Below are positions 1-19,168 of a stretch of 20,421 bases of DNA, piece after piece. The stretch comes from a virus. Lineage: Duplodnaviria > Heunggongvirae > Uroviricota > Caudoviricetes. How positions within the stretch are numbered: position 1 is the first letter of the stretch; every line of letters begins with the position of its first letter. Below the pieces are notes generated by a model that was given only the letters and a program-made list of their open reading frames with translations, searched no databases and had not been told where the DNA came from. The stretch lies in the IMG/VR virus record IMGVR_UViG_2654587509_000002; one strand, written 5' to 3'. The position numbers were made by a program, and so were the translations under genes.

Positions 1-59
1 GTCATCCTGTTTACCTCTTTCTCAGGGAGTTTAGTCTCCAGGATTCCCGGGGCGGTTCA
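1..59 (-). mobile_element. IS629 (IS3 family) left terminus; body of the element lies upstream of the window, inverted relative to the copy at 9112
   Basis: Bases 1-60 are the exact reverse complement of 9111-9170 (IRL TGAACCGCCCCGGGAATCC... through the orfA start). Confidence 0.85.
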
Positions 60-302
60 GTATTTCCCCGATACCTTGTGTGCAAATTGCATCAGATAGT
101 TGATAGCCTTTTGTTTGTCGTTCTGGCTGAGTTCGTGCTTACCACAGAATGCAGCCATTCCGAATCCGGCTTGTGATTGCGCCATCCCCATAGCAGCCAT
201 CACATCAGTACCGGAAAGAGAGTCAGAAGCCGTAGCCCGTGGTGAGTCGCTCATCATCGGGCTTTTTGGCGAATGAAATTTAGCTACGCTTTCGAGTCTC
301 AT
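57..302 (-). pseudogene. Q: Late antiterminator Q, N-terminal 81 codons only, truncated at the IS629 junction
   Basis: Translation [28 protein letters not shown]...KVSGKY matches the lambda Q N-terminus as I recall it; the frame runs into the IS terminus and stops at TGA 57-59. Full-length Q is about 207 aa. Confidence 0.85.
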
Positions 303-964
303 GCGCCTTCTCCCTGTACCTGAATCAATGTGAGGTTTCCGCAGAACACTGCGCCGGTATCGATATACATCTGGTTGGCAAACTTGAGTGGTTTCACTGC
401 TGGCGTATGACCAAAGATGAACGTGTCCGCACCTTTGATTTCTTTCACGATCCCGTCTTGTGAGTTGCTGATTCGTTCGCGGTTCCAGATTACCTGCTGA
501 TGATCAACTGGTTTTCCAAACTCGTATTCGTCACAAGGATAATCGGCGTGGCAGATGACATATTTTTTATCTTTGCTCACCAGTTCGATGATTAACGGAA
601 GTTCATCTGCTTTATGGGCAAGAGCTTTAGCCAGAATTTCTTTGTCGTAATCGAGATTAAAGAACCATCCACCGCCATTAAGCAGCCAGTGATTAACGTT
701 TCCACGCTCTGATAAGCCATCAATCATCATTTGCTCATGGTTTCCACGTACAGCTCTGAACCAGGGGAATGTGATTAATTCCAGGCATTCGACGTTCTCT
801 GCACCACGATCAACCAAATCGCCCACCGAGATAAGCAGGTCTTTTTTGTTGTCGAATCCAATCGTATCCAGTTTGTTCATCAGGTTCGTGTAGCATCCGT
901 GCAGATCGCCAACTACCCAAATATTTCGGTATTTGCTGCCATCAATTTTTTCGTAATAGCGCAT
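299..964 (-). CDS. ninI: Ser/Thr protein phosphatase (lambda NinI / orf221 type)
   Basis: 221 aa from [24 protein letters not shown] with GDLVDRG and GNHE metallophosphatase motifs; the 246-aa ORF is trimmed to the internal ATG at 964. Confidence 0.9.
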
Positions 965-1148
965 CTCTTTCACTCCATCCGCGATGAACCATAAGAACAT
1001 CGTTGACGATGGCGTGCATTTTCCCGTCTTTATCATCAACGTATTTTCTGACCGTACCGCGACTACATTTCAGTCTGCGTGCTACTTCTGTCTGGTTTCC
1101 GTATGCTTCAACGAGCATGTCTGGAATGGTTTTTACTGAGAACGTCAT
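942..1148 (-). CDS. ninH: NinH
   Basis: 68 aa [33 protein letters not shown]..., matching lambda NinH in length and sequence as recalled; overlaps the ninI start. Confidence 0.85.
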
Positions 1149-1756
1149 GCGGCCTCACTTCTGCTATTTCGCAGGTCTTTGAGTTTCTGTTGGTACTCTG
1201 CCTTGATCGCCTTGCACTCTTCGACAGTCCAGCGATGGCGGCTATGGTTTGATTCGATTTCGTCTACTGCTTCCTGCCCGATGCGGTTAATCAGTTCGAC
1301 GCGATACGGAACGAGATTTCCGCTTTTGTGCTGGTTGCACACCACGCATTGCTTGTGAATATTGCGTTCATCAAATCGGAGTTGAGGTGCCGCAGCAGTT
1401 GTCCGGTAATGTCCGGCATCCCACTGAGCAGACGTGAGCGTTCCGCACGAGATACATGGTAAGTCGCGGTCTCTTTCTCTGATGAAGGCGTTTACAGCTT
1501 GTTGGGCTTGTTTAATCCAGTAACTGCGGGGCTTTAAGGCGAGTTTTCGAATCTTCAGTTTATCTTTCTGTTTCTGCTCCTCTCGTCGTCGTTTCTTCTC
1601 TGCTGCTTTTTCCGCTTTTTCGCGTTCTTTGCTTCGTCGTTCCAGTGCTATCTTTGTTCCACACTCTGGAGAGCACCACCACTGATTAGCGAATGCAGGG
1701 TGAAACCATTCCCGACATTCTTCGTTTTTACATCGTCTTCGCGCTTGTTTAGCCAT
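1145..1756 (-). CDS. ninG: NinG (Rap) recombination endonuclease
   Basis: 203 aa; Cys-rich N-terminus (CKNEEC...CSPEC) and a basic coiled region; length and position as in lambda ninG. Confidence 0.85.
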
Positions 1757-2025
1757 TATGGTTCGCTCCAGTAATTCTCAATTGCAGCAGCCATTCTCTG
1801 CATCCACTCTGCCAGCTTTAACGCGGCTTCTCTTTCAGAACCACATTTAGGGAAATCCTTCATTTCCATGCTGGCCTTATATGTTCTGAATGCCAGGTCT
1901 CCGGTAATAACCAGCTCCTGATCAAGCACCGAGCGTTTATTCCGGTGTTGAACGTAATAGACAGATTCAGTCCGCATTTCTTCTCTGTCTTTTTTGAAGG
2001 AAATAAGCTCAGAGAAATCACTCAT
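1756..2025 (-). CDS. Hypothetical protein, 89 aa, nin region
   Basis: Intact ORF filling the gap between ninF and ninG with 1-nt and 8-nt overlaps to its neighbours; no counterpart recalled in lambda. Confidence 0.5.
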
Positions 2026-2194
2026 CGTCTTCTTCCTCGTACATTGAGCTATTCGGATCGCTCATCAGTTCTGCGCAGCAGTGCTCACACACATGAACTT
2101 CCAGCACATGCAGCTTCTGACCGCAGTTAGCGCACGTTAAAGCCCGCTCGACGCTTTCTTTCTGGTATTGAAGAGATTGGGATGGGCTAAGCAT
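2018..2194 (-). CDS. ninF: NinF-like small zinc-finger protein
   Basis: Hand translation from ATG at 2194: [44 protein letters not shown]..., 58 aa with a CxxC...CxxC motif; below the 60-aa ORF-track cutoff. Confidence 0.7.
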   Translation of the reverse strand: MLSPSQSLQYQKESVERALTCANCGQKLHVLEVHVCEHCCAELMSDPNSSMYEEEDDE

Positions 2195-2546
2195 TATTGG
2201 CGTCCTGCATCATGAGAAAGACAATCATGGCGGCGCGGAGGGAATTTTCATGTATAGCTCGCTTAGATTTACAGTCGGCCACACCACGTGCACCCCACTC
2301 GTCTTCATCGAGATTGATGATGCTAATCCTGTACTTCTCAATAATCGGCCATGAGGCGCTAGGATCATTGCAGTAGTCAGGCAAAGGGTTTAATGGCTCA
2401 AAAGTTGTATCAGCATTTCCGTAATACCATTTGTTGGTGTTATTCCCTGATGTTTCCGGTTTACATGCCCAAAGGCCTTTAAAAATTATGTCTCCTACCA
2501 TTCTGTTAATTTCAAAATCACTTAACTGTGAATAATCCATTGTCAT
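2187..2546 (-). CDS. Hypothetical protein, 119 aa, nin region
   Basis: ORF with ATGA overlap to the ninE stop (start [15 protein letters not shown]...); no confident family assignment. Confidence 0.5.
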
Positions 2547-2719
2547 TTCCTCGCACGATGTCTTAGCCACCGGATATCCCACAGGTGAGCCGTGTAATTG
2601 AAGGTTTTTACGTCAGATTCTTTTGGGATTGGCTTGCGTTTATTTCTGGAGCGTTTCGTTGGAAGGTATTTGCAGTTTTCGCAGATGATGTCGGTGATAC
2701 TTCGTCGCTGTCGTCTCAT
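2543..2719 (-). CDS. ninE: NinE
   Basis: 58 aa [58 protein letters not shown], recalled as lambda NinE; internal start within the 88-aa ORF. Confidence 0.75.
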
Positions 2720-3243
2720 GCCGCCCTCCTGACGCCCTGCCCGATCGCCATCAATGCCGCTTTGGATACGGTAGTAAACATCCGTCGAGGACTGATGAAC
2801 GGTCGCCAAATCAGCAGCATGGAACCTTTGCTGTTTCCCTTCTTCTCCAGCCCTGTCGATGGTTCGATAAAATTAATCCGTCCATCAGTGATAATACGAA
2901 CTTCGTCAACACTCTCCAGAGCCTTGCTGAACCATCCGACAGACATATCCTCTGGCACAAGCATCACTACCGTCTGTCGCTGTTGTATGCACTGCTCAGC
3001 GGCTTTTTCCACCCACGGCCTGATATTGCTGTACGGTGGGTTATTCCAGATTGCACCGTGGCTTACCCACTCAGAATTGAGCGCGTCGTCGGCCTCAGTT
3101 AACCAGTGAGCGCACAGAGCATTTTTGTCGCTCGCTGCCGAATCCAGCCAGAATCCAAACTCAATATCCAGTGCATCAAAAAGCCAAAGCGGCGTTTGCC
3201 AGCAGTCCTTGTCGTGTGCTGGCGTATTTGATTTGATAGTCAT
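2716..3243 (-). CDS. Phage Dam-type DNA N6-adenine methyltransferase
   Basis: 175 aa from [31 protein letters not shown]...; NPPY catalytic motif (AIWNNPPYS); occupies the lambda ninC position; ATGA overlap with the ninB stop. Confidence 0.8.
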
Positions 3244-3680
3244 GCAGCCCGATCTCCCCATCTCGCTTTCCACTCCAGAGCCAGTCTCGCTTCGTCTGAC
3301 CACTTAACGCCACGCTCTGTACCGAATGCCTGTATAAGCTCTAATAGCTCCGCAAATTCGCCTACACGCATCCTGCTGGTTGACTGGCCTATTACCACAA
3401 AGCCATTCCCGGCAAGGTTAGGAACAACATCCTGCTGCTTTAATGCTGCGGTAAACACACACTTCCAGCTTTCTGCATCCAGCCAGCGACCATGCCATTC
3501 AACCTGACGAGAGACGTCACCTAAGCAGGCCCATAGCTTCCTATTTTGGTCTAAGCTGCGGTTGCGTTCCTGAATGGTTACTACGATTGGTTTGGTTGGG
3601 TCTGGAAGGATTTGCTGTACTGCGTGAATAGCGTTTTGCTGATGTGCTGGAGATCGAATTTCAAAGGTTAGTTTTTTCAT
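3240..3680 (-). CDS. ninB: NinB (Orf) recombination mediator
   Basis: 146 aa from MKKLTFEIRSPAHQQNAIHAVQQILPDPTKP...; matches lambda NinB as recalled. Confidence 0.9.
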   Translation of the reverse strand: MKKLTFEIRSPAHQQNAIHAVQQILPDPTKPIVVTIQERNRSLDQNRKLWACLGDVSRQVEWHGRWLDAESWKCVFTAALKQQDVVPNLAGNGFVVIGQSTSRMRVGEFAELLELIQAFGTERGVKWSDEARLALEWKARWGDRAA

Positions 3681-3696
3681 GACTTCCCTCTCCCCC

Positions 3697-3727
3697 AAAT
3701 AAAAAGGCCTGCGATTACCAGCAGGCC
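3697..3727 (-). terminator. Rho-independent terminator at the tR2 position, between ren and ninB
   Basis: Minus-strand transcript forms stem GGCCUGC / loop / GCAGGCC (3706-3727) followed by a U-run (plus-strand A-run 3697-3705). Confidence 0.6.
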
Positions 3728-3753
3728 TGTTATTAGCTCAGTAATGTAGATGG

Positions 3754-4044
3754 TCATCTTTTAACTCCATATACCGCCAATACCCGTTTCATCGCGGCAC
3801 TCTGGCGACACTCCTTAAAAATCAGGTTCGTGCTCATCTTTCCTTCCCGTTCTTCCCTGGTAGCAAACCGGTAATACACCGTTCGCCAGACCTTACCTTC
3901 GATAACCAGAAGACCTGCCCGTGCCATTTTAGCCGCGGCCTGATTTATGCTGGTTACTGTTGCGCCTGTTAGCGCGGCAACGTCCGGCGCACAGAAGCTA
4001 TTATGCGTCCCCAGGTAATGAATAATTGCCTCTTTGCCCGTCAT
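3754..4044 (-). CDS. ren: Ren
   Basis: 96 aa MTGKEAIIHYLGTHNSFCAPDVAALTG...; length and sequence as recalled for lambda Ren; directly downstream of P. Confidence 0.85.
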   Translation of the reverse strand: MTGKEAIIHYLGTHNSFCAPDVAALTGATVTSINQAAAKMARAGLLVIEGKVWRTVYYRFATREEREGKMSTNLIFKECRQSAAMKRVLAVYGVKR

Positions 4045-4742
4045 ACACTTGCTCCTTTCAGTCCGAACTTAGCTTTAATTTCTGCGATCTTCGCCAGAGC
4101 CTGTGCACGATTTAGAGGTCTACCGCCCATAACAGGAAGTTGTTTTACTGGTTCAGGTATCGTCTCACCACGGTTAATTCGCGCTGTCATACAGGTCAGT
4201 TCATCGGCAGCCTTGCGCCGTAATTCCGCATCAGTAAGCGCATTGGCCCGCATGTTCTGATACAGGTTGGTAACCAGCCAGTAGTGCGCGTTTGATTTCC
4301 ACGGATAAGACTCCGCATCCGGATACAGGCCTCGCTTCCGGCAATACTCGTAAACCATATCAACCAGCTCGCTGACGTTTGGCAGTCCGGCGATAACGGA
4401 TGCTTCTTCCCGGCACCATGCAACAAACTGCCCGGGTGATGGCAGAAATGGTCGATTCTGCCGACGGGCTACGCGCATTCCTGCGTTAACCTGTTCCATC
4501 GTGGTGATCCCGTTTTCCCGAAAAGCCAGAACCCACTGGCGACGGATTTCGTTCACTTCGTTCTGGTCACGGTTAGCCAGGCTCGCCGGGAAAGTTGCCA
4601 GTAACTGGCTGAACACACCGTTGATGATCTGCGCTACCTGCTGTACCTGCGGCTTTTCGTCGTACTGTTCCGGCATGTTGTTGGCGATCCGACGCATCTG
4701 CTCACGGTCAAAGTTAACCATCTGTGCGGCGATGTTTTTCAT
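4041..4742 (-). CDS. P: Replication protein P (DnaB helicase loader)
   Basis: 233 aa MKNIAAQMVNFDREQMRRIANNMPEQYDEKPQ...; lambda P length; ATGA overlap with O. Confidence 0.95.
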   Translation of the reverse strand: MKNIAAQMVNFDREQMRRIANNMPEQYDEKPQVQQVAQIINGVFSQLLATFPASLANRDQNEVNEIRRQWVLAFRENGITTMEQVNAGMRVARRQNRPFLPSPGQFVAWCREEASVIAGLPNVSELVDMVYEYCRKRGLYPDAESYPWKSNAHYWLVTNLYQNMRANALTDAELRRKAADELTCMTARINRGETIPEPVKQLPVMGGRPLNRAQALAKIAEIKAKFGLKGASV

Positions 4743-5638
4743 AGATCCACCCCGTAAATCCAGTCTGTGTTTGTCAGGTCGAGTTTTGGTTTGCTGGCTG
4801 TCACGACTGCCTGTTGCTTGTTACGGTTGATTTCGAGCTGGGTCCACTTGTCGCGGAGTTTGGCCGGACTAAGCACGTTACCGGACCAGAAGTTGTCCTG
4901 GCATGCCCAGCGGAACAGCACGCACATGTCGCGGTGGTTACGTCCGTCACGTTCACGCATCAGGCGGATATCGTTAGCCCACCCTGCAAAATTCGGTTTT
5001 CTGGCTGATGGCGCGATGGTCTTCACCATGTCAAACATCCACTCTGCGGCGGTCAGGTCTTCTGCTGTCCCCCACTTGCTGCCGCTCTGAATTGCAGCAT
5101 CCGGTTTCACCACAGAAAGATCGTTTTCTGGCTGGTCAGAGGATTCGCCAGAATTCTCTGACGAATAATCTTTTCTTTTTTCTTTTGTAATAGTGTCTTT
5201 TGTGTCCCTCTGTTTTGAGGGATAGCAATCCCCCAATTTGAGGGATGTTTTATCCCTCGTTTTAGGGGATTTTCCCTCGTTTTGAGGGATACACCATTCT
5301 GAGATGTTTTTATTTGGTCCAAACATGCCGCCTTGCTGCTTGATAATATTCATTCTGACGAGTTCTAACTTGGCTTCATTGCACCGTTTGACGGGTAACT
5401 TTGTAATCTCGCTAAGTTGAGAATCGGTGACTCTGTCCATTGGTTTATTCCACCCATAGGTTTTACGCAGAATGGCAAGCAGCACTTTAAACTGTCGCTT
5501 GGTCAGATCTGCGCCCGAATAAGCCTCAAGCAGCATATTTGATAGTCTGGCGTAACCATCATCGAGATCTGCCACATTACGCTCCTGTCCGGCAAAGTTA
5601 CCTCTGCCGAAGTTGAGTATTTTTGCTGTATTTGTCAT
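4739..5638 (-). CDS. O: Replication initiator O
   Basis: 299 aa MTNTAKILNFGRGNFAGQERNVADLDD...; contains the origin iterons internally, as in lambda. Confidence 0.95.
   Translation of the reverse strand: MTNTAKILNFGRGNFAGQERNVADLDDGYARLSNMLLEAYSGADLTKRQFKVLLAILRKTYGWNKPMDRVTDSQLSEITKLPVKRCNEAKLELVRMNIIKQQGGMFGPNKNISEWCIPQNEGKSPKTRDKTSLKLGDCYPSKQRDTKDTITKEKRKDYSSENSGESSDQPENDLSVVKPDAAIQSGSKWGTAEDLTAAEWMFDMVKTIAPSARKPNFAGWANDIRLMRERDGRNHRDMCVLFRWACQDNFWSGNVLSPAKLRDKWTQLEINRNKQQAVVTASKPKLDLTNTDWIYGVDL
5165..5290. repeat. Lambda-type replication origin: four 19-bp iterons plus the adjacent AT-rich tract, inside O
   Basis: Four spaced copies of tccctc-N7-gagggat between about 5206 and 5290 (for example tccctctgttttgagggat, ttccctcgttttgagggat) and the A/T tract ttttcttttttcttttgtaatag at 5166-5192. 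Confidence 0.85.
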
Positions 5639-5670
5639 AATGACTCCTGTTGATAGATCCAGTAATGACC

Positions 5671-5964
5671 TCAGAACTCCATCTGGATTTGTTCAGAACG
5701 CTCGGTTGCCGCCGGGCGTTTTTTATTGGTGAGAATCGCAGCAACTTGTCGCGCCAATCGAGCCATGTCGTCGTCAACGACCCCCCATTCAAGAACAGCA
5801 AGCAGCATTGAGAACTTTGGAATCCAGTCCCTCTTCCACCTGCTGATCTGCGACTTATCAACGCCCACAGCTTCCGCTGTCTTCTCAGTTCCAAGCATTG
5901 CGATTTTGTTAAGCAACGCACTCTCGATTCGTAGAGCCTCGTTGCGTTTGTTTGCACGAACCAT
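5671..5964 (-). CDS. cII: Transcriptional activator cII
   Basis: 97 aa MVRANKRNEALRIESALLNKIAMLGTEKTAEAVGVDKSQISRWKRDWIPKF...; internal start of the 117-aa ORF. Confidence 0.95.
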   Translation of the reverse strand: MVRANKRNEALRIESALLNKIAMLGTEKTAEAVGVDKSQISRWKRDWIPKFSMLLAVLEWGVVDDDMARLARQVAAILTNKKRPAATERSEQIQMEF

Positions 5965-6043
5965 ATGTAAGTATTTCCTTAGATAACAATTGATTGAATG
6001 TATGCAAATAAATGCATACACCATAGGTGTGGTTTAATTTGAT

Positions 6044-6075
6044 GCCCTTTTTCAGGGCTGGGATGTGTAAGAGCG
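6044..6075 (-). promoter_or_regulatory. nutR (boxA and boxB) N-utilisation site
   Basis: On the minus strand, boxA CGCTCTTAC (plus 6067-6075) precedes the boxB hairpin GCCCTGAAAAAGGGC (plus 6044-6058), between cro and cII. Confidence 0.75.
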
Positions 6076-6083
6076 GGAATATC

Positions 6084-7439
<1,356 letters not shown>

Positions 7440-7489
7440 TCCCCACCTCAATCTCGATAACCAAAAAACAAACTATTTTCCGTTTAAAA

Positions 7490-7558
7490 ACAATGGAGTT
7501 TGTTTTTCATGCCCCTTTTTTACAATATTTCTTGTTTACAACATACAATCTTTCTTGT
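7490..7558. promoter_or_regulatory. Left operator (three 434-type 14-bp sites) with the pL region
   Basis: ACAATGGAGTTTGT (7490-7503), ACAATATTTCTTGT (7522-7535) and ACAATCTTTCTTGT (7545-7558), each ACAA-N6-TTGT, with the same spacing as OR. Confidence 0.75.
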
Positions 7559-7604
7559 AATTTTAAGCCATCAGCAGGACGCACTGACCACCATTGAAGG
7601 TGAT

Positions 7605-7634
7605 GCTCTTAAAAATTAAGCCCTGAAGAAGGGC
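7605..7634 (+). promoter_or_regulatory. nutL (boxA-like and boxB)
   Basis: GCTCTTAAA (7605-7613) followed by the boxB hairpin GCCCTGAAGAAGGGC (7620-7634), upstream of N. Confidence 0.8.
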
Positions 7635-7792
7635 AGCATTCAAAGCAGAAGGCTTTGGGGTGTGTGATACGAAACGAAGCATTGGCCGGAAGTGCGAATC
7701 CGGATTAGCTGCAAATGAGCCAATCGTGGGGTGTTTTCGTTCAGGACTACGACTCACACACACCACCAAAGCTAACTGACAAGAGAATCCAG

Positions 7793-8116
7793 ATGGATGC
7801 ACAAACACGCCGCCGCGAACGTCGCGCAGAGAAACAGGCTCAATGGAAAGTAGCAAATCCCCTGTTGGTTGGGGTAAGCGCAAAACCAGTTAACCGCCCT
7901 ATTCTCTCGCTGAATCGCAAACCGAAATCACGAGTAGAAAGCGCACTGAATCCGATAGACCTTACAGTGCTGGCTGAATACCACGAACAGATTGAAAGCA
8001 ACCTGCAACGTATTGAGCGCAAGAATCAGCGCACATGGTACAGCAAGCCTGGCGAACGCGGCATAACATGCAGTGGACGCCAGAAAATTAAGGGAAAATC
8101 GATTCCTCTTACCTAG
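7793..8116 (+). CDS. N: Antitermination protein N
   Basis: 107 aa MDAQTRRRERRAEKQAQWK...; arginine-rich motif at the N-terminus; lambda N length; the ORF-track 5' extension is rejected. Confidence 0.95.
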   Translation: MDAQTRRRERRAEKQAQWKVANPLLVGVSAKPVNRPILSLNRKPKSRVESALNPIDLTVLAEYHEQIESNLQRIERKNQRTWYSKPGERGITCSGRQKIKGKSIPLT

Positions 8117-8671
8117 TTACTTAGATATTGGCCTTGGCTTTATCTCAATATTATATGGATCATAGCTGGCAACTAATTCAGTCCAGTAAATATCCTCAAT
8201 AGGGAATAATATATGCTTCCCGTTCCATCGGGAAAAAGTTTTGTTCAACACACCAAGCTCAATCAACTCACTAATGTATGGGAATTGTTTTGATGTAACC
8301 ACATACTTCCTGCCTTCATTAAGGGCTGCGCACAAAACCATAGATTGCTCTTCTGTAAGGTTTTGAATTACCGATCGCACTTTATCGTTTTGCATCTTAA
8401 TGCGTTTTCTTAGCTTAAATCGCTTATATTTGGCGCTGGCAATAGCTGATAATCGATGCACATTAATTGCTAGCGAAAATGCAAGAGCAAAGACGAAAAC
8501 ATGCCACACATGAGGAATACCGATTCTCTCATTAACATATTCAGGCCAGTTATCTGGGCTTAAAAGCAGAAGTCCAACCCAGATAACGATCATATACATG
8601 GTTCTCTCCAGAGGTTCATTACTGAACACTCGTCCGAGAATAACGAGTGGATCCATTTCTATACTCATCAA
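8117..8671 (-). CDS. sieB: Superinfection exclusion protein B (SieB)
   Basis: 184 aa MMSIEMDPLVILGRVFSNEPLERTMYMIVIWVGLLLL... with hydrophobic segments; transcribed opposite to N, as in lambda. Confidence 0.8.
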   Translation of the reverse strand: MMSIEMDPLVILGRVFSNEPLERTMYMIVIWVGLLLLSPDNWPEYVNERIGIPHVWHVFVFALAFSLAINVHRLSAIASAKYKRFKLRKRIKMQNDKVRSVIQNLTEEQSMVLCAALNEGRKYVVTSKQFPYISELIELGVLNKTFSRWNGKHILFPIEDIYWTELVASYDPYNIEIKPRPISK

Positions 8672-8795
8672 ACTGTAGGGGTTGTAATAGTTTATCCGAT
8701 TTCTCGCTGTAGGGGTACACGAGAACCACCGAGCCTGATGTGGTTAAAAGACAGGCACAATCTTTACTACCGCAATCCACTATTTAAGGTGATAT

Positions 8796-9045: not shown

Positions 9046-9165
9046 CAGAACAACAAAGCTGCCTGATAGTGGCCTTTATTTTTGGCATAAATAACAGAAT
9101 AAACACTGCACTGAACCGCCCCGGGAATCCTGGAGACTAAACTCCCTGAGAAAGAGGTAAACAGG

Positions 9166-9492
9166 ATGACTAAAAATACTCGTTTTTCCCCTGAAGTCCG
9201 TCAACGGGCAGCCCGTATGGTTCTGGAAAGTCAGGGCGAATATGACTCACAATGGGCGACAATTTGTTCCATTGCTCCAAAGATTGGCTGTACGCCGGAG
9301 ACTCTGCGTGTCTGGGTTCGCCAGCATGAGCGGGATACCGGGGGCGGTGATGGAGGGCTCACCACCGCTGAACGTCAGCGTCTGAAAGAGCTGGAGCGTG
9401 AAAATCGTGAACTGCGCCGCAGTAACGATATCCTTCGCCAGGCTTCCGCTTATTTTGCGAAGGCGGAGTTCGACCGCCTCTGGAAAAAATAA
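9166..9492 (+). CDS. IS629 transposase OrfA (HTH and leucine-zipper subunit)
   Basis: 108 aa [55 protein letters not shown]...; ends in an A6 run just before orfB. Confidence 0.9.
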
Positions 9493-10379
9493 TGCCGCTG
9501 CTGGATAAGCTGCGTGAGCAGTACGGGGTCGGACCGCTATGCAGCGAACTGCATATTGCCCCGTCAACGTATTACCACTGTCAGCAACAGCGACATCATC
9601 CGGATAAACGCAGTGCCCGTGCGCAGCGCGATGACTGGCTGAAGAAAGAGATACAGCGCGTATACGATGAAAATCACAAGGTATACGGTGTGCGTAAAGT
9701 CTGGCGTCAGTTGTTACGGGAAGGAATCAGAGTGGCCAGATGCACTGTGGCACGTCTCATGGCGGTTATGGGACTTGCCGGTGTTCTCCGGGGTAAAAAG
9801 GTCCGCACTACCGTCAGCCGGAAAGCCGTTGCCGCATGCGACCGCGTAAACCGTCAGTTCGTGGCAGAACGTCCAGACCAGTTGTGGGTGGCTGATTTTA
9901 CCTGGGTAAGCACATGGCAGGGCTTCGTTTATGTGGCGTTCATCATTGATGTGTTCGCCGGATACATCGTGGGATGGCAGGTCTCATCATCCATGGAAAC
10001 AACATTCGTGCTGGATGCACTGGAGCAGGCGTTGTGGGCCCGTCGGCCGTCCGGCACAATCCATCACAGTGATAAAGGTTCTCAGTATGTATCGCTGGCC
10101 TACACGCAGCGGCTTAAGGAAGCCGGATTACTGGCATCAACAGGGAGTACTGGCGACTCGTATGACAACGCGATGGCGGAGAGCATCAATGGTCTTTACA
10201 AAGCGGAGGTAATACACCGTAAGAGCTGGAAAAACCGTGCAGAAGTGGAACTGGCCACACTCACGTGGGTGGACTGGTATAACAATCGACGATTGCTGGA
10301 AAGGCTGGGCCATACTCCCCCGGCAGAAGCAGAAAAAGCTTATTATGCTTCCATCGGAAACGATGATCTGGCAGCCTGA
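9492..10379 (+). CDS. IS629 transposase OrfB (DDE catalytic domain), normally expressed as an OrfAB fusion by -1 frameshift
   Basis: 295 aa, in the -1 frame relative to orfA and overlapping its stop; IS3-family integrase-core motifs (HSDKGSQY..., ...ESINGLYKAE). Confidence 0.9.
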   Translation: MPLLDKLREQYGVGPLCSELHIAPSTYYHCQQQRHHPDKRSARAQRDDWLKKEIQRVYDENHKVYGVRKVWRQLLREGIRVARCTVARLMAVMGLAGVLRGKKVRTTVSRKAVAACDRVNRQFVAERPDQLWVADFTWVSTWQGFVYVAFIIDVFAGYIVGWQVSSSMETTFVLDALEQALWARRPSGTIHHSDKGSQYVSLAYTQRLKEAGLLASTGSTGDSYDNAMAESINGLYKAEVIHRKSWKNRAEVELATLTWVDWYNNRRLLERLGHTPPAEAEKAYYASIGNDDLAA

Positions 10380-10421
10380 GTTCACAGATAAAACACTCTC
10401 CAGGAAACCCGGGGCGGTTCA

Positions 10422-10610
10422 CTGCGTGTGTGGGTTCGTCAGCATGAGCGGGATACCGGGAGTGGTGATGGTGGACTCACCACCGCTGAACGTCAGCGTC
10501 TGAAAGAGCTGGAACGTGAAAATCGTGAACTGCGCCGCAGTAACGATATCCTTCGCCAGGCTTCCGCTTATTTTGCGAAGGCGGAGTTCGACCGCCTCTG
10601 GAAAAAATAA
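10422..10610 (+). pseudogene. IS629 orfA remnant (C-terminal 62 codons, no native start)
   Basis: In-frame continuation of orfA codons from the truncation point; the ORF track shows it only via a GTG start at 10428. Confidence 0.8.
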
Positions 10611-11497
10611 TGCCGCTGCTGGATAAGCTGCGTGAGCAGTACGGGGTCGGACCGGTATGCAGTGAACTGCATATTGCCCCGTCAACGTATTACCACTGTC
10701 AGCAACAGCGACATCATCCTGATAAACGCAGTGCCCGTGCTCAGCGCGATGACTGGCTGAAGAGAGAGATACAGCGCGTATACGATGAAAATCATCAGGT
10801 GTACGGTGTGCGTAAAGTCTGGCGCCAGTTGTTACGCGAAGGTATCAGGGTGGCCAGATGTACAGTGGCGCGCCTCATGGCGGTTATGGGACTTGCCGGT
10901 GTTCTCCGGGGTAAAAAGGTCCGTACTACCGTCAGCCGGAAAGCCGTTTCCGCAGGCGACCGCGTAAACCGTCAGTTCGTGGCAGAACGTCCTGACCAGC
11001 TGTGGGTGGCTGATTTTACTTACGTCAGCACATGGCAGGGCTTCGTCTATGTGGCGTTCATCATTGATGTGTTTGCCGGATGTATCGTGGGGTGGCGAGT
11101 CTCATCGTCTATGGAAACGACATTCGTGCTGGATGCACTGGAGCAGGCGTTGTGGGCCCGTCGGCCGTCCGGCACAGTCCATCACAGTGATAAAGGTTCT
11201 CAGTATGTATCACTGGCCTATACGGAGCGACTAAAAGAAGCAAAACTGCTGGCATCAACAGGGAGTACAGGTGACTCGTATGACAACGCGATGGCGGAGA
11301 GCATCAATGGTCTTTACAAAGCGGAGGTAATACACCGTAAGAGCTGGAAAAACCGTGCAGAAGTGGAACTGGCCACACTCACGTGGGTGGACTGGTATAA
11401 CAATCGACGATTGCTGGGAAGGCTGGGTCATATCCCTCCGGCAGAAGCAGAAAAAGCTTATTATGCTTCCATCAGAAACGATGATCTGGCAGCCTGA
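10610..11497 (+). CDS. IS629 OrfB, second copy (intact frame; expression doubtful because orfA is truncated)
   Basis: 295 aa, about 95% identical to the first OrfB with scattered substitutions (for example K52R, W138Y, Y158C). Confidence 0.8.
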   Translation: MPLLDKLREQYGVGPVCSELHIAPSTYYHCQQQRHHPDKRSARAQRDDWLKREIQRVYDENHQVYGVRKVWRQLLREGIRVARCTVARLMAVMGLAGVLRGKKVRTTVSRKAVSAGDRVNRQFVAERPDQLWVADFTYVSTWQGFVYVAFIIDVFAGCIVGWRVSSSMETTFVLDALEQALWARRPSGTVHHSDKGSQYVSLAYTERLKEAKLLASTGSTGDSYDNAMAESINGLYKAEVIHRKSWKNRAEVELATLTWVDWYNNRRLLGRLGHIPPAEAEKAYYASIRNDDLAA

Positions 11498-11539
11498 GTT
11501 CACAGATAAAACACTCTCCAGGAAAACCGGGGCGGTTCA

Positions 11540-11953
11540 GGGCTGTATTCCAATGCCACGTTGACAGATGCTGACCCTCAGGCAATTGAAGATGCCATTA
11601 ATGACCTCGAAGACATGATGGCAGCATGGCAGGCTAAAGGTATCGAGCTTGGATATCAGTTTGCTGATACAGAAAACGGCATCATGCCGTTACCTGACGA
11701 TGATTCAGGTATCCCTGCGTGGGCAAATGATGGCGTCGCTTTGAAGCTCGCTGTGCAAGTGTGCATGGATAACGTCATTCAGCCGTCAGATGCTCTCCTT
11801 ACCGCTGCTGACAGCGCATATCAGACAATCTGCATCGCTTTAACCAAAATACCACCACTTGAGCGGCGAAATGACATGCCTCGCGGTAGTGGTAACAAAA
11901 GCGCGTTTACGTGGAATCGGTTTTACATCGAGAAAGATGATCCAAGTACGTGA
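11540..11953 (+). pseudogene. gp4: P22-like gene 4 (head completion / tail accessory protein), 5'-truncated by IS629
   Basis: Frame is open from the IS boundary (GLYSNATLTDADPQAIEDAINDLEDMMAAW...), 137 codons remaining; no start codon with a ribosome-binding site; followed by gene 10 as in P22. Confidence 0.7.
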
Positions 11954-11962
11954 GGTGAATAA

Positions 11963-12067
11963 ATGCCGATTCAGCAACTTCCGCTTATGAAAGGTGTCGG
12001 CAAAGACTTTCGAAACGCCGACTATATCGACTATCTGCCAGTGAATATGCTGGCAATTTTGATATAA
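11963..12067 (+). pseudogene. Orphaned 5' fragment of P22-like gene 10 (34 codons)
   Basis: GAGGTGA ribosome-binding site then [34 protein letters not shown]-stop; first 31 residues are homologous to the start of the intact gene 10 at 12636 ([31 protein letters not shown]). Confidence 0.7.
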
Positions 12068-12103
12068 TAAGTACATGAAAAATCGAAACTTTAAGGAGTA
12101 GAT

Positions 12104-12688
12104 ATGCTTTCTGAGAATGCTAAAGATATACCTGGATTTGAAGGTGTTTATGCCGTAACAGAAGATGGCAGGGTATATTCTCACTCACGTGTTGTTAAGG
12201 CTGCGCATGGCAGCACGCAACTCAGAAAGGGGCGCTGGTTAAAGCCTAAAATCAATCAGGGAAGGGTGCTTTATAATATCGGAGCAAAATGGACTTTTGC
12301 CCATCGAATCGTTGCAATGACATTCCTGCCAAATCCTGAAAACAAGCCTCAGGTAAATCATATTGATGGCAATCCACTCAATAATAACGTCAATAATCTT
12401 GAGTGGTGCACTCAAAGCGAAAACATCAAACATGCATACGCCACCGGATTAAAGAAACCAATCAAGTTTTTCGGAACCAAGCACCCAAAACACAAGTTGA
12501 GTGATGACGATGTTCTTGCAATCAAGTCATCAAAAGAAAGCTTGTCAGTAATTGCGGCTAAGTACGGGATATCTAAGACCTGGGCAAGTAGGCTAAAGCG
12601 TGATGCTAACTGGGTTCATATAAAGGTTGATTCCAATGGCAATACAACAACTACCACTAATGAAGGGATTGGGGAAAAGTGCGGTTAA
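12104..12688 (+). CDS. HNH homing-endonuclease-like protein (NUMOD4-like N-terminus plus HNH motif)
   Basis: 194 aa; AAGGAG ribosome-binding site; GFEGVYAVTEDGRVYS (NUMOD4-like), HRIVAMTF...VNHIDGNPLNNNVNNLEWCTQSENIKHA (HNH); AT-rich; 3' end overlaps the gene 10 start. Confidence 0.8.
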   Translation: MLSENAKDIPGFEGVYAVTEDGRVYSHSRVVKAAHGSTQLRKGRWLKPKINQGRVLYNIGAKWTFAHRIVAMTFLPNPENKPQVNHIDGNPLNNNVNNLEWCTQSENIKHAYATGLKKPIKFFGTKHPKHKLSDDDVLAIKSSKESLSVIAAKYGISKTWASRLKRDANWVHIKVDSNGNTTTTTNEGIGEKCG

Positions 12689-14054
12689 TGCTGATTATAT
12701 AGACCAACTTCCAGTCAATCTTTTAGCTACGCCCAAGGAGGTGTTGAATTCATCGGGATATCTTCGCTCATTCCCGGGCATTGCCAAACGTTCTGATGTG
12801 AACGGCGTATCGCGAGGCGTCGAGTACAACATGGCGCAGAGTGCTGTTTATCGCGTGTGTGGTGGCAAGCTGTACAAAGGAGAAAGTGAAGTTGGTGATG
12901 TTGCCGGAAGTGGTCGCGTATCAATGGCACATGGTCGGACATCACAGGCGGTAGGCGTTAATGGTCAACTGGTCGAATACCGCTATGATGGCACGGTTAA
13001 AACCGTCTCAAACTGGCCTACGGACAGCGGATTCACGCAGTATGAGTTAGGTTCGGTCCGTGACATTACGCGTTTACGTGGGCGTTATGCGTGGTCAAAA
13101 GACGGTACTGATTCATGGTTTATCACTGACCTTGAAGACGAATCGCATCCTGACCGCTACAGCGCACAATATCGGGCAGAATCGCAGCCGGACGGTATCA
13201 TCGGCATCGGAACATGGCGAGATTTCATCGTCTGCTTTGGTTCATCGACGATTGAATATTTTTCCCTGACTGGTGCAACCACCGTTGGTGCCGCTTTGTA
13301 TGTCGCACAGCCATCACTAATGGTGCAAAAAGGAATCGCCGGGACTTACTGCAAAACGCCATTCTCTGATTCATATGCGTTCATCAGCAATCCGGCAACA
13401 GGTGCGCCGTCTGTGTACATCATCGGCTCCGGTCAGGTGTCACCAATCGCCAGTGCGAGCATTGAGAAAATCCTCCGCTCCTACACTGCTGATGAACTGG
13501 CTGATGGCGTGATGGAATCGTTGCGGTTTGATGCTCATGAGTTGCTGATTATCCATCTTCCGCGTCACGTCCTCGTGTACGACGCATCTTCAAGCGCCAA
13601 TGGTCCGCAATGGTGTGTGCTTAAAACAGGCCTGTATGACGATGTGTACCGCGCTATCGACTTCATTTACGAAGGCAATCAGATAACGTGCGGCGATAAG
13701 CTGGAATCGGTGACCGGGAAATTGCAGTTCGATATCAGCAGTCAGTATGGGCTTCAACAGGAACACCTTCTGTTTACTCCGTTGTTCAAAGCGGATAACG
13801 CCAGATGCTTCGATCTGGAGGTGGAATCGTCCACTGGCGTAGCTCAGTACGCCGACCGCCTGTTCCTCTCTGCGACCACTGACGGCATAAATTACGGTCG
13901 TGAGCAGATGATTGAGCAGAATGAACCGTTCGTTTACGACAAACGCGTTTTGTGGAAGCGAGTCGGGCGCATCAGGAAAAATGTCGGCTTCAAATTGCGC
14001 GTTATCACGAAGTCACCTGTCACTCTGTCTGGCTGCCAGATAAGGATTGAGTAA
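12636..14054 (+). CDS. gp10: P22-like gene 10 tail accessory factor
   Basis: 472 aa from ATG 12636, the same length as P22 gp10; position between genes 4 and 26. Confidence 0.8.
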
Positions 14055-15914: not shown

Positions 15915-17330
15915 ATGGCTACGTGGCAACATGGTATTAATTCTGGTGGTTTTCTGGCTGGCATCGGTACGCAAAATGAGAATGCGCCAAAGGCAAGCGA
16001 CATTAACGCAACGCTTGGTCTGATCCGCGAAAACAATGAGTTGGCTCGCTCAGGTGCAAATAACGTTGGTCTGACCGCGTTACGTGGTCTGGCTGGAGTT
16101 GCTGATATTTACAATCAGGAACAGCAACAGAAAGCGATTAGTGCGTTCAATAAGGTTCACGCTGATGCATGGGCTTCTGGTGATCCATCGGGACTATTTA
16201 AGTTTGCCCAGGAAAATCCAGCGTTTGTTGCACAGGCACAACAGGCGTTTTCTGGTCTTAATGATCAGCAACGCAACGATATGGGCGATTTAGCCATGAG
16301 GGCTAACGTCGCTCTTTCTCAGGGACCGGAAGCCTACAGTAAATTCATTACTGACAACAAGGACAGGTTAAATCGCGTTGGTGCTAATGCTGACTGGATG
16401 ATTCAGACAGGTATCCAGAATCCAGAGCAGCTATCACACATGCTGACTACTATGTCTCTCGGTGCGCTTGGACCAGAAAAGGCGTTTGCTGTTCAGGATA
16501 AGATGGCTGGTCGTGAAATTGACCGAGGCAGGCTGGCAGAGACAATCCGCAGCAATCAGGCTGGTGAAGCACTTCAGGCGAGAGGGCAAAACCTTTCCTA
16601 TCAGTCAGCAATGACTGGGCACAATATCGCAGCACAACGCTTGGCTCTGGATCAGCAAGAGTTCGGGTTTAAGATGCAGCAAGCGCAGGAAAAGGCTCAG
16701 CAGTTGATTAGTGAAGCACCTAAGCTGTCAGTAAACATGGAAAAAGGCATCGAGACGGCTGTAAACAATGCCACAGCATCATCAAACTCAGCCAATTCTA
16801 TGAGTGCGCTTGCTCAACAGTTCAGAGCAGAAAAACCAACGACAGGTTTGTTCGGTAACGCACAGAACATGTTCGCAAAACTTACCGGAAGCGATACGAC
16901 ATTGCGTGATTTGCGCATCCGCCAAAATGCCCTTGTTAACAGTCAGGTTCTTAAATTCCTACCTCCCGGCCCAGCAACGGATAAAGACGTTGAGATCGTT
17001 CGGCAGGGTGCGCCAACTGACATGGATAACCCTGAGACGGTCGCAAGATGGCTTGATGCAATGGCAAACCTTGAGCGACGAAACGCGCAGTTTAATGAGT
17101 TTAAAGCTGAGTGGATGAGCGCGAATGGCAATCCTGGACAATCGCGTAATGGCGGTCAGATATTGGGGTTGGATGTTAAAAAAGGTGAATCATTGGGGAG
17201 TGCCGTTAAGCGGTATATGTCATTGAATACTGACGCAGCGCCAGCACAAGATTCGACACCTTCAGGAGAACCACGGAATCAGGTTGGATCATATACCTCA
17301 AAATCAGTCATTCAATTTACGGTGGAATGA
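15915..17330 (+). CDS. gp20: P22-like gene 20 ejection protein
   Basis: 471 aa, identical in length to P22 gp20; synteny. Confidence 0.8.
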
Positions 17331-19168
17331 TGAAAGTAACTGCAAACGGTAAGACATTTACCTTCCCTGATGGTACGAGCACGGAAGATATTGGAGCCGC
17401 CATTGATGATTATTTTGCTGGTCAGGTTGTTCAGCAACAAACAGTTAATCAGGCCAATAATGCACCAGTACGTGAAGAACCATCATTGATGCAACAAGCT
17501 GGCGATTGGCTCACTGGTGGTCAAAGTGCAGGGCAAATTGCAGAACAGGCTGGTCGTGGTCTGGTAAACATACCATTTGACGTATTGCAGGGTGGCGCAA
17601 GTCTGATTAATGCAATCAGTCAGGGGCTTGGTGGGCCAAAAGTTTTGGATGATGTTTATCGTCCAGTAGACAAACCGACAGACCCATACGCACAAGCCGG
17701 TGAAACAATTGGTGGGTATTTAGTTCCAGGAGTTGGAACGGCAGGAAGCATGGCTATTGGATCGCTGGCAGAGGCCGCAAATCAGAAAGGCGATTTCGCA
17801 CAAAATGCAGCTAAAAATGCCGGAGTTAACCTTGCCGCTCAGGGTGTTCTTTCCGCAGCAGCAAAGGGAATAGGGCGTGGAATAACGGCTATAAAAGGTG
17901 ATATTGCGCCAGAAGTGGCGAAGAAAATTGCCACATCAGAATCGATGGGCGTGACACCAATGACATCTGATGTTATCCCGCCGAAAAATGCTTTCACTCG
18001 CGGCCTTACTCAGGATGCCGAGGGGGCTTTGCTCGGGACGGGCTCAAAGCGAGCAGAGCAATATGCAACGCGGAGTAAGCTGGTAAGCAATTATTTTGAC
18101 CGTTTTGGTGAGTACAACCCTGATGATGTGGTGAAATCTCTGACCACCACGTTAAGGGGGCGGAAGGATGCCGCTGGCGCTGTTATCAATGACGTCACCA
18201 ATAAAATGGGTAATGCCGCAGTTGATACCACAAATACCATGAATGCTCTGAATACAGCGATCGCAAGACAGGAACGGCTTGGGACGTCTGCCAATCAAAG
18301 CCTGCTTACATCCTTGCGTAACCTACGTGAAGAATTAGCAAACCCTGCAACTGATTTGGATGTTACGTTTGATCTCTTGCGTCAGCACAGAACAGCATTT
18401 AGATCTAATGTTCAGGGAGATGCTATGGTCTTCCCCAACCAGGCAAAAGCAGCTACCAATATGGTAGAGAATGCAATGTCAAAAGACCTTCGTAACGCAG
18501 TTGCTAAAAACCTCGGTGCATCAGACGCAGCAAAATACCTTAAAGCAAATTCCGATTATGCAAACGTTTATAATAAGGTGCTTAATAAAAACATTGCCAA
18601 CAAGCTCAACAAGGCAAGCAGTGAAGCCAGTCCTGAACTTATAAATACCGTTGTATTAAGCAGAAAACCATCTGACGTGAAACGAATCTGGAGCGCACTG
18701 GATGATAAGGGGAAAGATGCTATGCGTGCAGCTTACGTCAGCAAAATAGCGGAAAAGGCCGGGGACTCTCCAGCCAAGTTCATCACTGAAGTTAATAAGC
18801 TGAAATCTCAGTCAGGCGGTGAAATTTACAACACTATTTTTTCTGGAAAGCACATGAAAGAGCTTGATGCTCTTCATGAAGTTCTACAGCAAACAGCAAG
18901 GTCAGACACCGCAAATGTAGTAACTCAGACGGGGCAATCGCAAGCCAACAGGATAAGGACGATTGGCGCAACTGCGACCCTTGGCGTATCAATGGGGCTT
19001 GAGGCTGGTTTTGGTGCAATGATGCGCTTGTATGAGTCCAAAGCAGCAAGGAATATGCTTCTTCGTTTGGCAAACACCAAAGCAGGAACACCAGCCTATG
19101 AAAGAGCGATAAATAACGCTGCGAATGCCATCAGACCGCTGTTTGCTACTGAGGCAACACAGCAGTAA
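17327..19168 (+). CDS. gp16: P22-like gene 16 ejection protein
   Basis: 613 aa (P22 gp16 is about 609 aa); ATGA overlap with gene 20; last gene of the ejection operon. Confidence 0.8.

Follow-up and report, generated by a model that had tools for sequence, protein, structure and literature searches.

A 20,421-nucleotide stretch of viral DNA (Caudoviricetes; IMG/VR record IMGVR_UViG_2654587509_000002), referred to over its full length as the window, contains within gene 10, an essential tail gene of a P22-like prophage, an element of 703 nucleotides (nt) that is best read as a free-standing homing-endonuclease cassette, a reading to which we assign a probability of roughly three in four. The cassette (12056..12758, plus strand) carries the stop codons that close an interrupted gene 10 start, a putative promoter, a leader, an HNH endonuclease gene, and nt 1-123 of a second, differently encoded (re-spelled) gene 10 start. 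Its anatomy and exact position, its presence or absence at one site in many related phages and prophages, its conservation against variable flanks, and the kinship of its product with the homing endonuclease I-HmuI are the main lines of evidence.

To the left of the cassette, the native 5′ end of gene 10 (nt 1-93, codons 1-31) lies orphaned at 11963..12055 (+), where it matches gene 10 of the insert-free phage CUS-3 at 91 of 93 nt. It is still preceded by the native Shine-Dalgarno sequence GAGGTG (11952..11957, +; read from the sequence and the same in CUS-3), which now serves this stub, and it runs on into the cassette as an open reading frame (ORF) of 34 codons (11963-12067) whose stop is reached at 12067. 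The original prediction, made from the letters of the window, had described an orphaned 34-codon fragment with its own ribosome-binding site at 11963, which is borne out. It had also named the possibility of an unrelated small ORF; on checking, the stub proved to be the native gene 10 start, matching the Pfam gp10 family (Phage_stabilise) over profile positions 1-28 (E=7e-11). The same prediction placed the insert at the boundary of gene 4 and gene 10. Comparison with insert-free homologs, which it had proposed for defining the site, revealed one exact site that lies instead inside gene 10: similarity to native genes stops after ...GTGAATATGCTGGCA (12055), so that the insertion point follows nt 93 (codon 31), and native nt 94-123 are replaced relative to the empty site.

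The endonuclease gene itself (NUMOD4-HNH-HTH, the last standing for helix-turn-helix; 12104..12688, +; Pfam NUMOD4 and HNH_3) encodes 194 amino acids (aa) and has a GC content of 42%, versus 51% for the remaining gene 10. An AT-rich gene with a strong ribosome-binding site (AAGGAG) and a 3′ end lying over the gene 10 start had been noticed from the outset, and the overlap amounts to 53 nt. The functional gene 10 (12636..14054, +), encoding the packaged-DNA stabilisation or tail hub protein of 472 aa, begins 53 nt inside the HNH ORF and matches Phage_stabilise over its whole profile (1-469/469, E=1e-296). Its re-spelled, apparently foreign-derived nt 1-123 (12636..12758, +) join the resident gene 10 in frame, giving a full-length gp10 ORF of 472 codons. 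The right-hand end thought earlier to fall at 12735 has to be moved outward, as the re-spelled tract reaches gene 10 nt ~120-123 (12755-12758). A group I or II intron or an intein was considered and rejected: no Rfam intron family was found at E<=1. The stub is closed by a stop codon, and the gene 10 that follows has an ATG and a ribosome-binding site of its own.

Alignment of the two copies of codons 1-31, which lie in direct orientation 673 nt apart, revealed 59 identical nt of 93 (63%) with a longest identical run of 5 nt; 8 codons are identical, 16 differ synonymously, and 7 differ non-synonymously, in agreement with the early remark that the two versions differ at many synonymous sites. 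Relative to native CUS-3, 44 of the first 150 nt of the re-spelled copy differ, all of them within nt 1-120, and from nt 121 on the downstream copy is ordinary relative to native alleles. The re-spelling is densest at nt 105-120, where 10 of 15 positions are changed, two of them invariant in 53 empty alleles. GC content at third codon positions (GC3) is 0.37 in the re-spelled tract and 0.40 in the HNH gene, and 0.55 in the stub and the remaining gene 10. Judged by alignment and base composition, the stub is native and the re-spelled tract foreign-derived.

A local tandem duplication of the gene 10 start, with divergence in place and an unrelated HNH gene landing between the copies, would also leave two homologous copies in direct orientation 673 nt apart. 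However, one copy matches present-day native alleles at 98-100% identity, whereas the other diverges by 37% and has another GC3, and this divergent copy does not vary between Salmonella and E. coli backgrounds that are 15 of 93 nt apart in their stubs. Such a pattern calls for import rather than drift in place, and the duplication scenario is very improbable.

The distribution of the cassette was studied in a comparison set of ~150 related loci and by megablast against 50,697 phage records. In the insert-free phages CUS-3, Kapi1, Sf101, Huey, phiKp_30, P22, and others, the query gives two separate matches that directly adjoin each other in the phage genome; in Salmonella phage UPF_BP1, a single match at 96.6% spans the insert. 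The UPF_BP1 stub equals P22 gene 10 at 93 of 93 nt and is 15 nt off the window stub; its cassette differs from that of the window at 7 of 703 positions, with no difference in re-spelled nt 1-120. Four E. coli prophages were compared as well: the cassettes of three of them differ from one another, from that of the window, and from that of UPF_BP1 at 0-8 positions, and the fourth prophage, in strain ES5, has a 1-nt deletion. The cassette is present in 18 of 914 complete E. coli genomes matching a 901-nt junction query. The enzyme was also found, at 99-100% identity, in 27 IMG/VR contigs, without exception in the layout of stub, HNH gene, and re-spelled gene 10. The arrangement recurs in >45 independent assemblies, beside at least four types of gene 4 (35-100% aa identity to that of the window) and several needle-gene types. 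A scan of species-representative genomes with the enzyme returned only distant homologues (<=49% identity, short motif-only segments excepted) and no cassette.

In this collection, presence or absence is polymorphic at one precise site: the same junction was found in all examined cassette loci (~32 distinct sources), and the site is empty in CUS-3, P22, Sf101, Kapi1, and 59 IMG/VR loci. The cassette measures 703 nt in 25 of 25 IMG/VR loci, with a nucleotide diversity (pi) of 0.005, compared with 0.04 in the stub, 0.056 in gene 10 from nt 124, and 0.04-0.10 in the flanks overall, the flanks being 10-20 times more variable; it is 99% conserved over backgrounds whose flanks are 5-8% different or unrelated. 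Within re-spelled nt 1-120, pi is 0.003-0.010 versus 0.08-0.09 in 58 empty alleles, with a between-class divergence (dxy) of 0.36-0.39. Past nt 123, carriers are not differentiated from non-carriers (pi 0.056, dxy 0.076), and the right boundary of the cassette, at nt 121-123, is sharp. Sixteen sequence variants of the stub were counted in the 25 cassette loci, all with an open frame and mirroring the local alleles. Since the cassette is near-invariant, its flanks diverse, its stubs local, and its GC3 foreign, a cassette of foreign origin appears to have been inserted at one site in many backgrounds. Only the oddness of finding a gene start twice could suggest an assembly or annotation artefact. 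The structure is also present in complete E. coli chromosomes, in an isolated phage genome, and in many metagenomic contigs, and the stub in E. coli genomes is independently annotated by the NCBI pipeline as an incomplete gp10 pseudogene, next to the enzyme gene as HNH endonuclease WP_021538734.1, which leaves an artefact a practically negligible chance.

In the GenBank record of UPF_BP1 (KX776161; locus L008, 2966-4384), gene 10 is annotated from locus position 3074, after the HNH stop; the ATG that lines up with the start of all other gene 10 sequences lies 108 nt upstream of this position. Gene 4 of this phage (L008 1833-2333), in a P22-type background, ends inside the stub, which there holds real coding sequence.

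The HNH product of the window is identical in sequence to that of the RefSeq HNH coding sequence annotated WP_021538734.1. Pfam assigns NUMOD4 to residues 7-53 and HNH_3 to residues 65-107, the latter with a score of 40.6 bits versus a cut-off of 24.8, and sequence comparison matches residues 7-116 with I-HmuI (PDB 1u3e, E=1e-8). An AlphaFold (AF2) model built from 54 homologues (predicted local distance difference test, pLDDT, 87.6), with strands at 16-65 and helices at 134-165, had 1u3e as its sole significant structural match in Foldseek (190 columns, probability 1.00, ~25% identity). The model predicts a modular build of an N-terminal NUMOD4 beta domain, an HNH core, and a C-terminal helical module; the last ~18 residues, encoded where the gene overlaps gene 10, are predicted to be disordered. 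Residues N85, H86, N98, and N107 are invariant in the 54 homologues, and H86 and N107 align with the His and the final Asn of the I-HmuI motif. PADLOC and PHROGs give the label 'homing/HNH endonuclease' only. Taken together, the sequence and model comparisons identify the enzyme as an intact and selected relative of I-HmuI, a homing endonuclease that nicks.

Among 5.8 billion proteins searched, relatives of the enzyme were retrieved at 83, 82, 72, and 69% aa identity. The contigs of these four lineages are all P22-like, with the enzyme gene between gene 4 and gene 10, and they share the layout of an orphaned start of gene 10, with 26-31 codons and an end near ...LPVNML(A), an endonuclease gene, and a full gene 10 starting 47-53 nt inside the endonuclease ORF. 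The gene 10 copies within each lineage are 53-63% identical with identical runs of <=8 nt. Between lineages, synonymous sites of the enzyme gene are saturated (proportion of synonymous differences, pS, 0.59-0.92) and the proportion of non-synonymous differences (pN) is 0.07-0.17, with a ratio of non-synonymous to synonymous substitution rates (dN/dS) of ~0.05-0.08 where computable. An intact 194-codon ORF is found in 50 of 51 locus records with the window's version of the cassette, these records representing ~32 distinct sources as several contigs were fetched twice. The layout is thus old and the enzyme under strong purifying selection. In E. coli ES5 (locus L012, 2152-2735), the 1-nt deletion splits the endonuclease gene into two ORFs; this is the sole decayed copy among the records, and the idea of many decayed endonuclease genes was rejected on this count.

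An extended -10 promoter, TGATATAAT, is predicted for the endonuclease gene at 12060..12068 (+), where TGnTATAAT is invariant in five lineages. Downstream, at 12081..12106 (+), invariant alignment blocks delimit a conserved leader with the AATCGAAAC block, AAGGAG at 12093-12098, and the HNH start codon at 12104. The non-coding blocks invariant in the five lineages number three, namely TGnTATAAT(AA), AATCGAAAC, and GGAGTAGAyATG, and the second and third are also common to related enzymes at a site between gene 10 and gene 26. TGnTATAAT has its sole match in the window here, one per 20 kb being not significant alone; a promoter is proposed because the motif is conserved while the neighbouring synonymous sites are saturated. 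In L255, the most diverged lineage, the motif does not double as the stub stop codon, so that a role in ending the stub is not what conserves it. The endonuclease gene would thus have its own promoter, which could permit synthesis of the enzyme independently of the late operon, and perhaps in lysogens. For the re-spelled gene 10, a Shine-Dalgarno-like AAGG is read from the sequence at 12623..12626 (+), within the HNH 3′ coding region, and its equivalent in L254 and L255 is GAGG/GGAG. RNAalifold detected no conserved RNA structure near the HNH ribosome-binding site of the kind found in T4 endonuclease genes. A native inverted repeat, TGCCAG..CTGGCA (12036..12055, +), read at the insertion point, ends exactly at the left junction and forms with the cassette's ATTTTG (12036-12062) a weak terminator-like hairpin; as a conserved terminator it was rejected, because it is not conserved in L255.

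The homing cycle proposed for this cassette would begin in a cell that contains both a cassette-bearing and a cassette-free P22-like genome, where the enzyme would nick or cut the cassette-free gene 10 near nt 94-123. Repair would then copy the cassette, with native gene 10 nt 1-93 as left arm and gene 10 from nt 124 as right arm, leaving the recipient's first 93 nt as a stub and replacing its nt 94-123. The target would have to include native nt 94-123, because this is the sole native segment missing from carriers. Carriers would be immune in that native nt 94-123 no longer follow nt 1-93 and that the new copy is most densely re-spelled at nt 105-120. The original prediction spoke of the footprint of a free-standing homing endonuclease moving by double-strand-break repair, with the diverged copy resistant to cleavage. 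Its core is upheld by the one exact site, the conservation of the cassette, and the relationship to I-HmuI, and the break may be a nick, given that I-HmuI cleaves a single strand, near its insertion site (Landthaler et al. 2004, as cited in PMC2988022). The part that has to be given up is the re-spelling of nt 1-93 as the source of resistance, because carriers keep native nt 1-93 unchanged. More plausibly, this re-spelling prevents repeat-mediated deletion or simply reflects foreign origin; an identity of 63% with no run >5 nt between the copies would block loss of the cassette by repeat recombination. Gene 4 is of unrelated types and overlaps gene 10 by 41 nt in P22-type phages, and to the left of nt 94-123 conservation is confined to the first 93 native nt. 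For that reason the stub is proposed as the left homology arm, a role that would in turn force the cassette to bring its own gene 10 start.

Several observations weigh against homing as the explanation. The copy of the cassette in the window sits in a defective, IS-disrupted prophage (IS, insertion sequence); it is nonetheless intact and identical to copies in apparently complete prophages. The cassette is rare, at ~2% of detected E. coli P22-like junctions, which is modest for efficient drive. No co-conversion gradient was seen 3′ of the cassette, where carrier diversity reaches background right after nt 123. The cassette-free re-spelled stage of the usual cycle of a homing-endonuclease gene (HEG) was not found among the loci, every locus with the re-spelled start retaining the HNH gene. 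Nor was a donor lineage found, with no natural gene 10 allele detected near the re-spelled tract in DNA: in an IMG/VR scan with the 50-aa product of the re-spelled start, the nearest allele differs at 39 of 123 nt, and in a 'distant' blastn of the cassette against the 50,697 phage records, the re-spelled part matched only in UPF_BP1.

Part of this evidence would suit a passive 'moron' made once by illegitimate recombination and spread by ordinary homologous recombination among mosaic P22-like phages, its enzyme being kept for another job, e.g., as a prophage nuclease against superinfecting relatives. A conserved sigma-70 extended -10 promoter of its own is typical of prophage-expressed morons, the low frequency of ~2% and the missing co-conversion gradient agree with passive spread, strong purifying selection suits any useful nuclease, and the PADLOC library has a homing-endonuclease model matching the enzyme. 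On the other hand, the enzyme family is that of proven homing nickases, one site is used across a range of 69-100% enzyme identity, and, at either end of gene 10, the presence of a re-spelled target end coincides without exception with that of an HNH gene, which homing predicts and a generic defence gene does not. The two roles are moreover not exclusive, as a nuclease cutting cassette-free relatives would both exclude them and drive conversion. We regard a purely passive moron as unlikely, and retain the homing cassette as the preferred reading.

At the opposite end of gene 10, the space before gene 26 is occupied in other P22-like phages by two more NUMOD4-HNH genes, whose products share 55 and 43% aa identity with that of the window (L003 2446-2991, from phage HZ41; L041-L052; L060-L064; L021, L023, and L024). 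An alternative version of the last ~340 nt of gene 10 (~38% divergent) was found in 20 of 20 loci with such a gene and in 0 of 80 without, and three contigs (L021, L023, and L024) have endonuclease genes at both ends of gene 10. These loci appear to follow the same logic of a HEG plus a replaced target end. Comparison of window 12080-12243 with HZ41 (L003 ~2423-2585) showed 87% nt identity over the leader and the first ~46 codons, beyond which the two enzymes share ~45% aa identity. The endonuclease genes are, on this comparison, mosaics in their own right, with a shared N-terminal module and different DNA-binding ends. In L034, ~500 nt between gene 10 and gene 26 (4949-5447) have no HNH homology and may be another insert or a remnant.

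A screen of ~150 loci with homologous HNH genes revealed diverged gene-end copies flanking HNH in unrelated genes as well. A Treponema contig has the same 5′ layout at the N-terminus of a helicase (L165 2729-3663), and C-terminal duplicates were found in a CHAP-like gene (L133 781-1888), an integrase (L126 1755-2595), a peptidase (L124 2909-3592), and another gene (L141 2890-3696). The contigs besides Treponema come from Cyclobacteriaceae, Ruminococcus, a candidate-phylum bacterium, and Bacteroides, and alignment scores of the end duplicates are 58-86 versus a background of ~30. The duplicates in the Treponema helicase, the Cyclobacteriaceae CHAP-like, the peptidase, and the integrase genes are hints that the pattern is widespread. 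A broader reading can be framed as one joint claim: phage NUMOD4-HNH homing endonucleases would use a general, hitherto unrecognised 'end-replacement' strategy inside essential coding sequences without intron or intein, keeping a short conserved target end as homology arm and carrying a re-spelled replacement; gene 10 would be a landing pad at both ends in P22-like phages; and the enzyme, made from its own promoter and possibly in the lysogen, would be both a gene drive and a weapon against superinfecting cassette-free relatives. This claim as a whole is tentative, and we hold the odds to be somewhat against it.

The surroundings of the cassette belong to a rearranged, defective, and IS-disrupted prophage, in which virion-assembly genes of a P22-like (Lederbergvirus-type) phage are present. 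Gene 4 (head-completion/tail adaptor; 11561..11953, +; Pfam P22_Tail-4, profile 27-151 of 159, E=7e-29) ends with the TGA at 11951-11953, and its 5′ end is missing, cut off by the IS elements to its left. These are two IS3-family elements arranged head to tail (9102-11549): a complete one (9102-10425; orfA 9166-9492, orfB 9492-10379) and a second, 5′-truncated copy without the first ~200 nt (10422-11549; orfB 10610-11497), with an IS inverted repeat end at 11549. Together they remove approximately the first 36 codons of gene 4. A lambdoid early region (1-8700) directly adjoins the IS elements and gene 4; its genes for a phosphoesterase, ninG, ninX, ninB, P, O, and sieB are on the minus strand, opposite to the assembly genes, and a cI-like repressor gene is on the plus strand (6406-7038). 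Terminase, portal, scaffold, and coat genes are absent between the early region and gene 4. Farther right, a 613-codon ORF (17327-19168) occupies the position of the P22 ejection protein gene 16 and has no Pfam match at E<=0.001.

If the homing reading is correct, the cassette adds to the means known by which homing endonucleases become established in essential phage genes, mirroring fungal mitochondria at the opposite gene end. It would account for the abrupt mosaic boundaries that P22-like phages have at the two ends of gene 10 and for annotation problems such as the RefSeq gp10 'pseudogene' and the late gene 10 start in KX776161. It also predicts that P22 is cut within gene 10 nt ~85-125, and makes the enzyme a candidate site-specific nicking or cutting tool for engineering podophages of Salmonella, E. 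coli, and Shigella. Activity of the promoter in lysogens would also give the cassette a bearing on competition between prophages.

Full-text literature searches turned up no description of the gene 10 cassette; a prior mention is possible in Casjens and Thuman-Commike 2011 (Virology 411:393), the likeliest survey to contain one. The routes for phage HEGs into essential genes that a recent paper lists are introns, inteins, and one gene split (PMC10448857). In Aeromonas phage Aeh1, nrdA is split into two functional pieces by insertion of mobE, as cited in PMC10448857 and PMC2988022. As in Aeh1, an HNH homing endonuclease gene is found here within an essential phage coding sequence without intron or intein; unlike there, where both halves are translated and assembled, the upstream piece is redundant and the cassette brings a complete replacement. 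I-HmuI and I-HmuII are intron-encoded HNH nicking endonucleases of the Bacillus phages SPO1 and SP82 (PDB 1u3e). The window enzyme resembles I-HmuI in its N-terminal beta domain, HNH core, and C-terminal helix-turn-helix, whereas I-HmuI sits in a self-splicing group I intron of a DNA polymerase gene and no intron is present here.

The free-standing homing endonucleases of T4-like phages provide a second comparison. In this 'intronless homing', described for SegF/gene 56, SegG/gene 32, SegE/uvsW, and MobE/nrdB, the endonuclease genes are intergenic, their targets lie in neighbouring conserved genes, and no gene piece is duplicated (PMC2988022). Shared with the window are a free-standing endonuclease beside a conserved target gene, a diverged and presumably resistant target, and a spread by gene conversion together with flanks. 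The HNH genes between gene 10 and gene 26 of related phages fit this pattern exactly, whereas the window cassette lies inside coding sequence and brings a replacement start.

Closer still are the mobile endonuclease ORFs (mORFs) of fungal mitochondria, which have been reported to make gene hybrids in Allomyces macrogynus (atp6), Glomus (atp6, atp9, cox2, and nad3), Rhizopus (atp9), and Mortierella (cox2) (PMC3630166). In these elements, a foreign C-terminal piece takes the place of the native one, which is left downstream (PMC3630166; see also PMC6279837), and the Glomus atp6 duplicates are 63.5% identical at the nt level (PMC3630166). The common features are an endonuclease gene associated with a foreign target-gene end that forms part of the full ORF and a native end left adjacent, the two ends being only ~60-65% identical in nt (63% in the window). 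The mORFs differ in that they affect the 3′ end (C-terminus) of mitochondrial genes and encode LAGLIDADG or GIY-YIG enzymes, often fused in frame, whereas here the 5′ end of a phage gene is replaced and the HNH enzyme is encoded by a separate, overlapping ORF with a putative promoter of its own, the replacement end needing its own ribosome-binding site. By analogy, the fungal mitochondrial mORFs are the closest described counterpart, and the gene 10 cassette would work in a like manner without being a member of that class.

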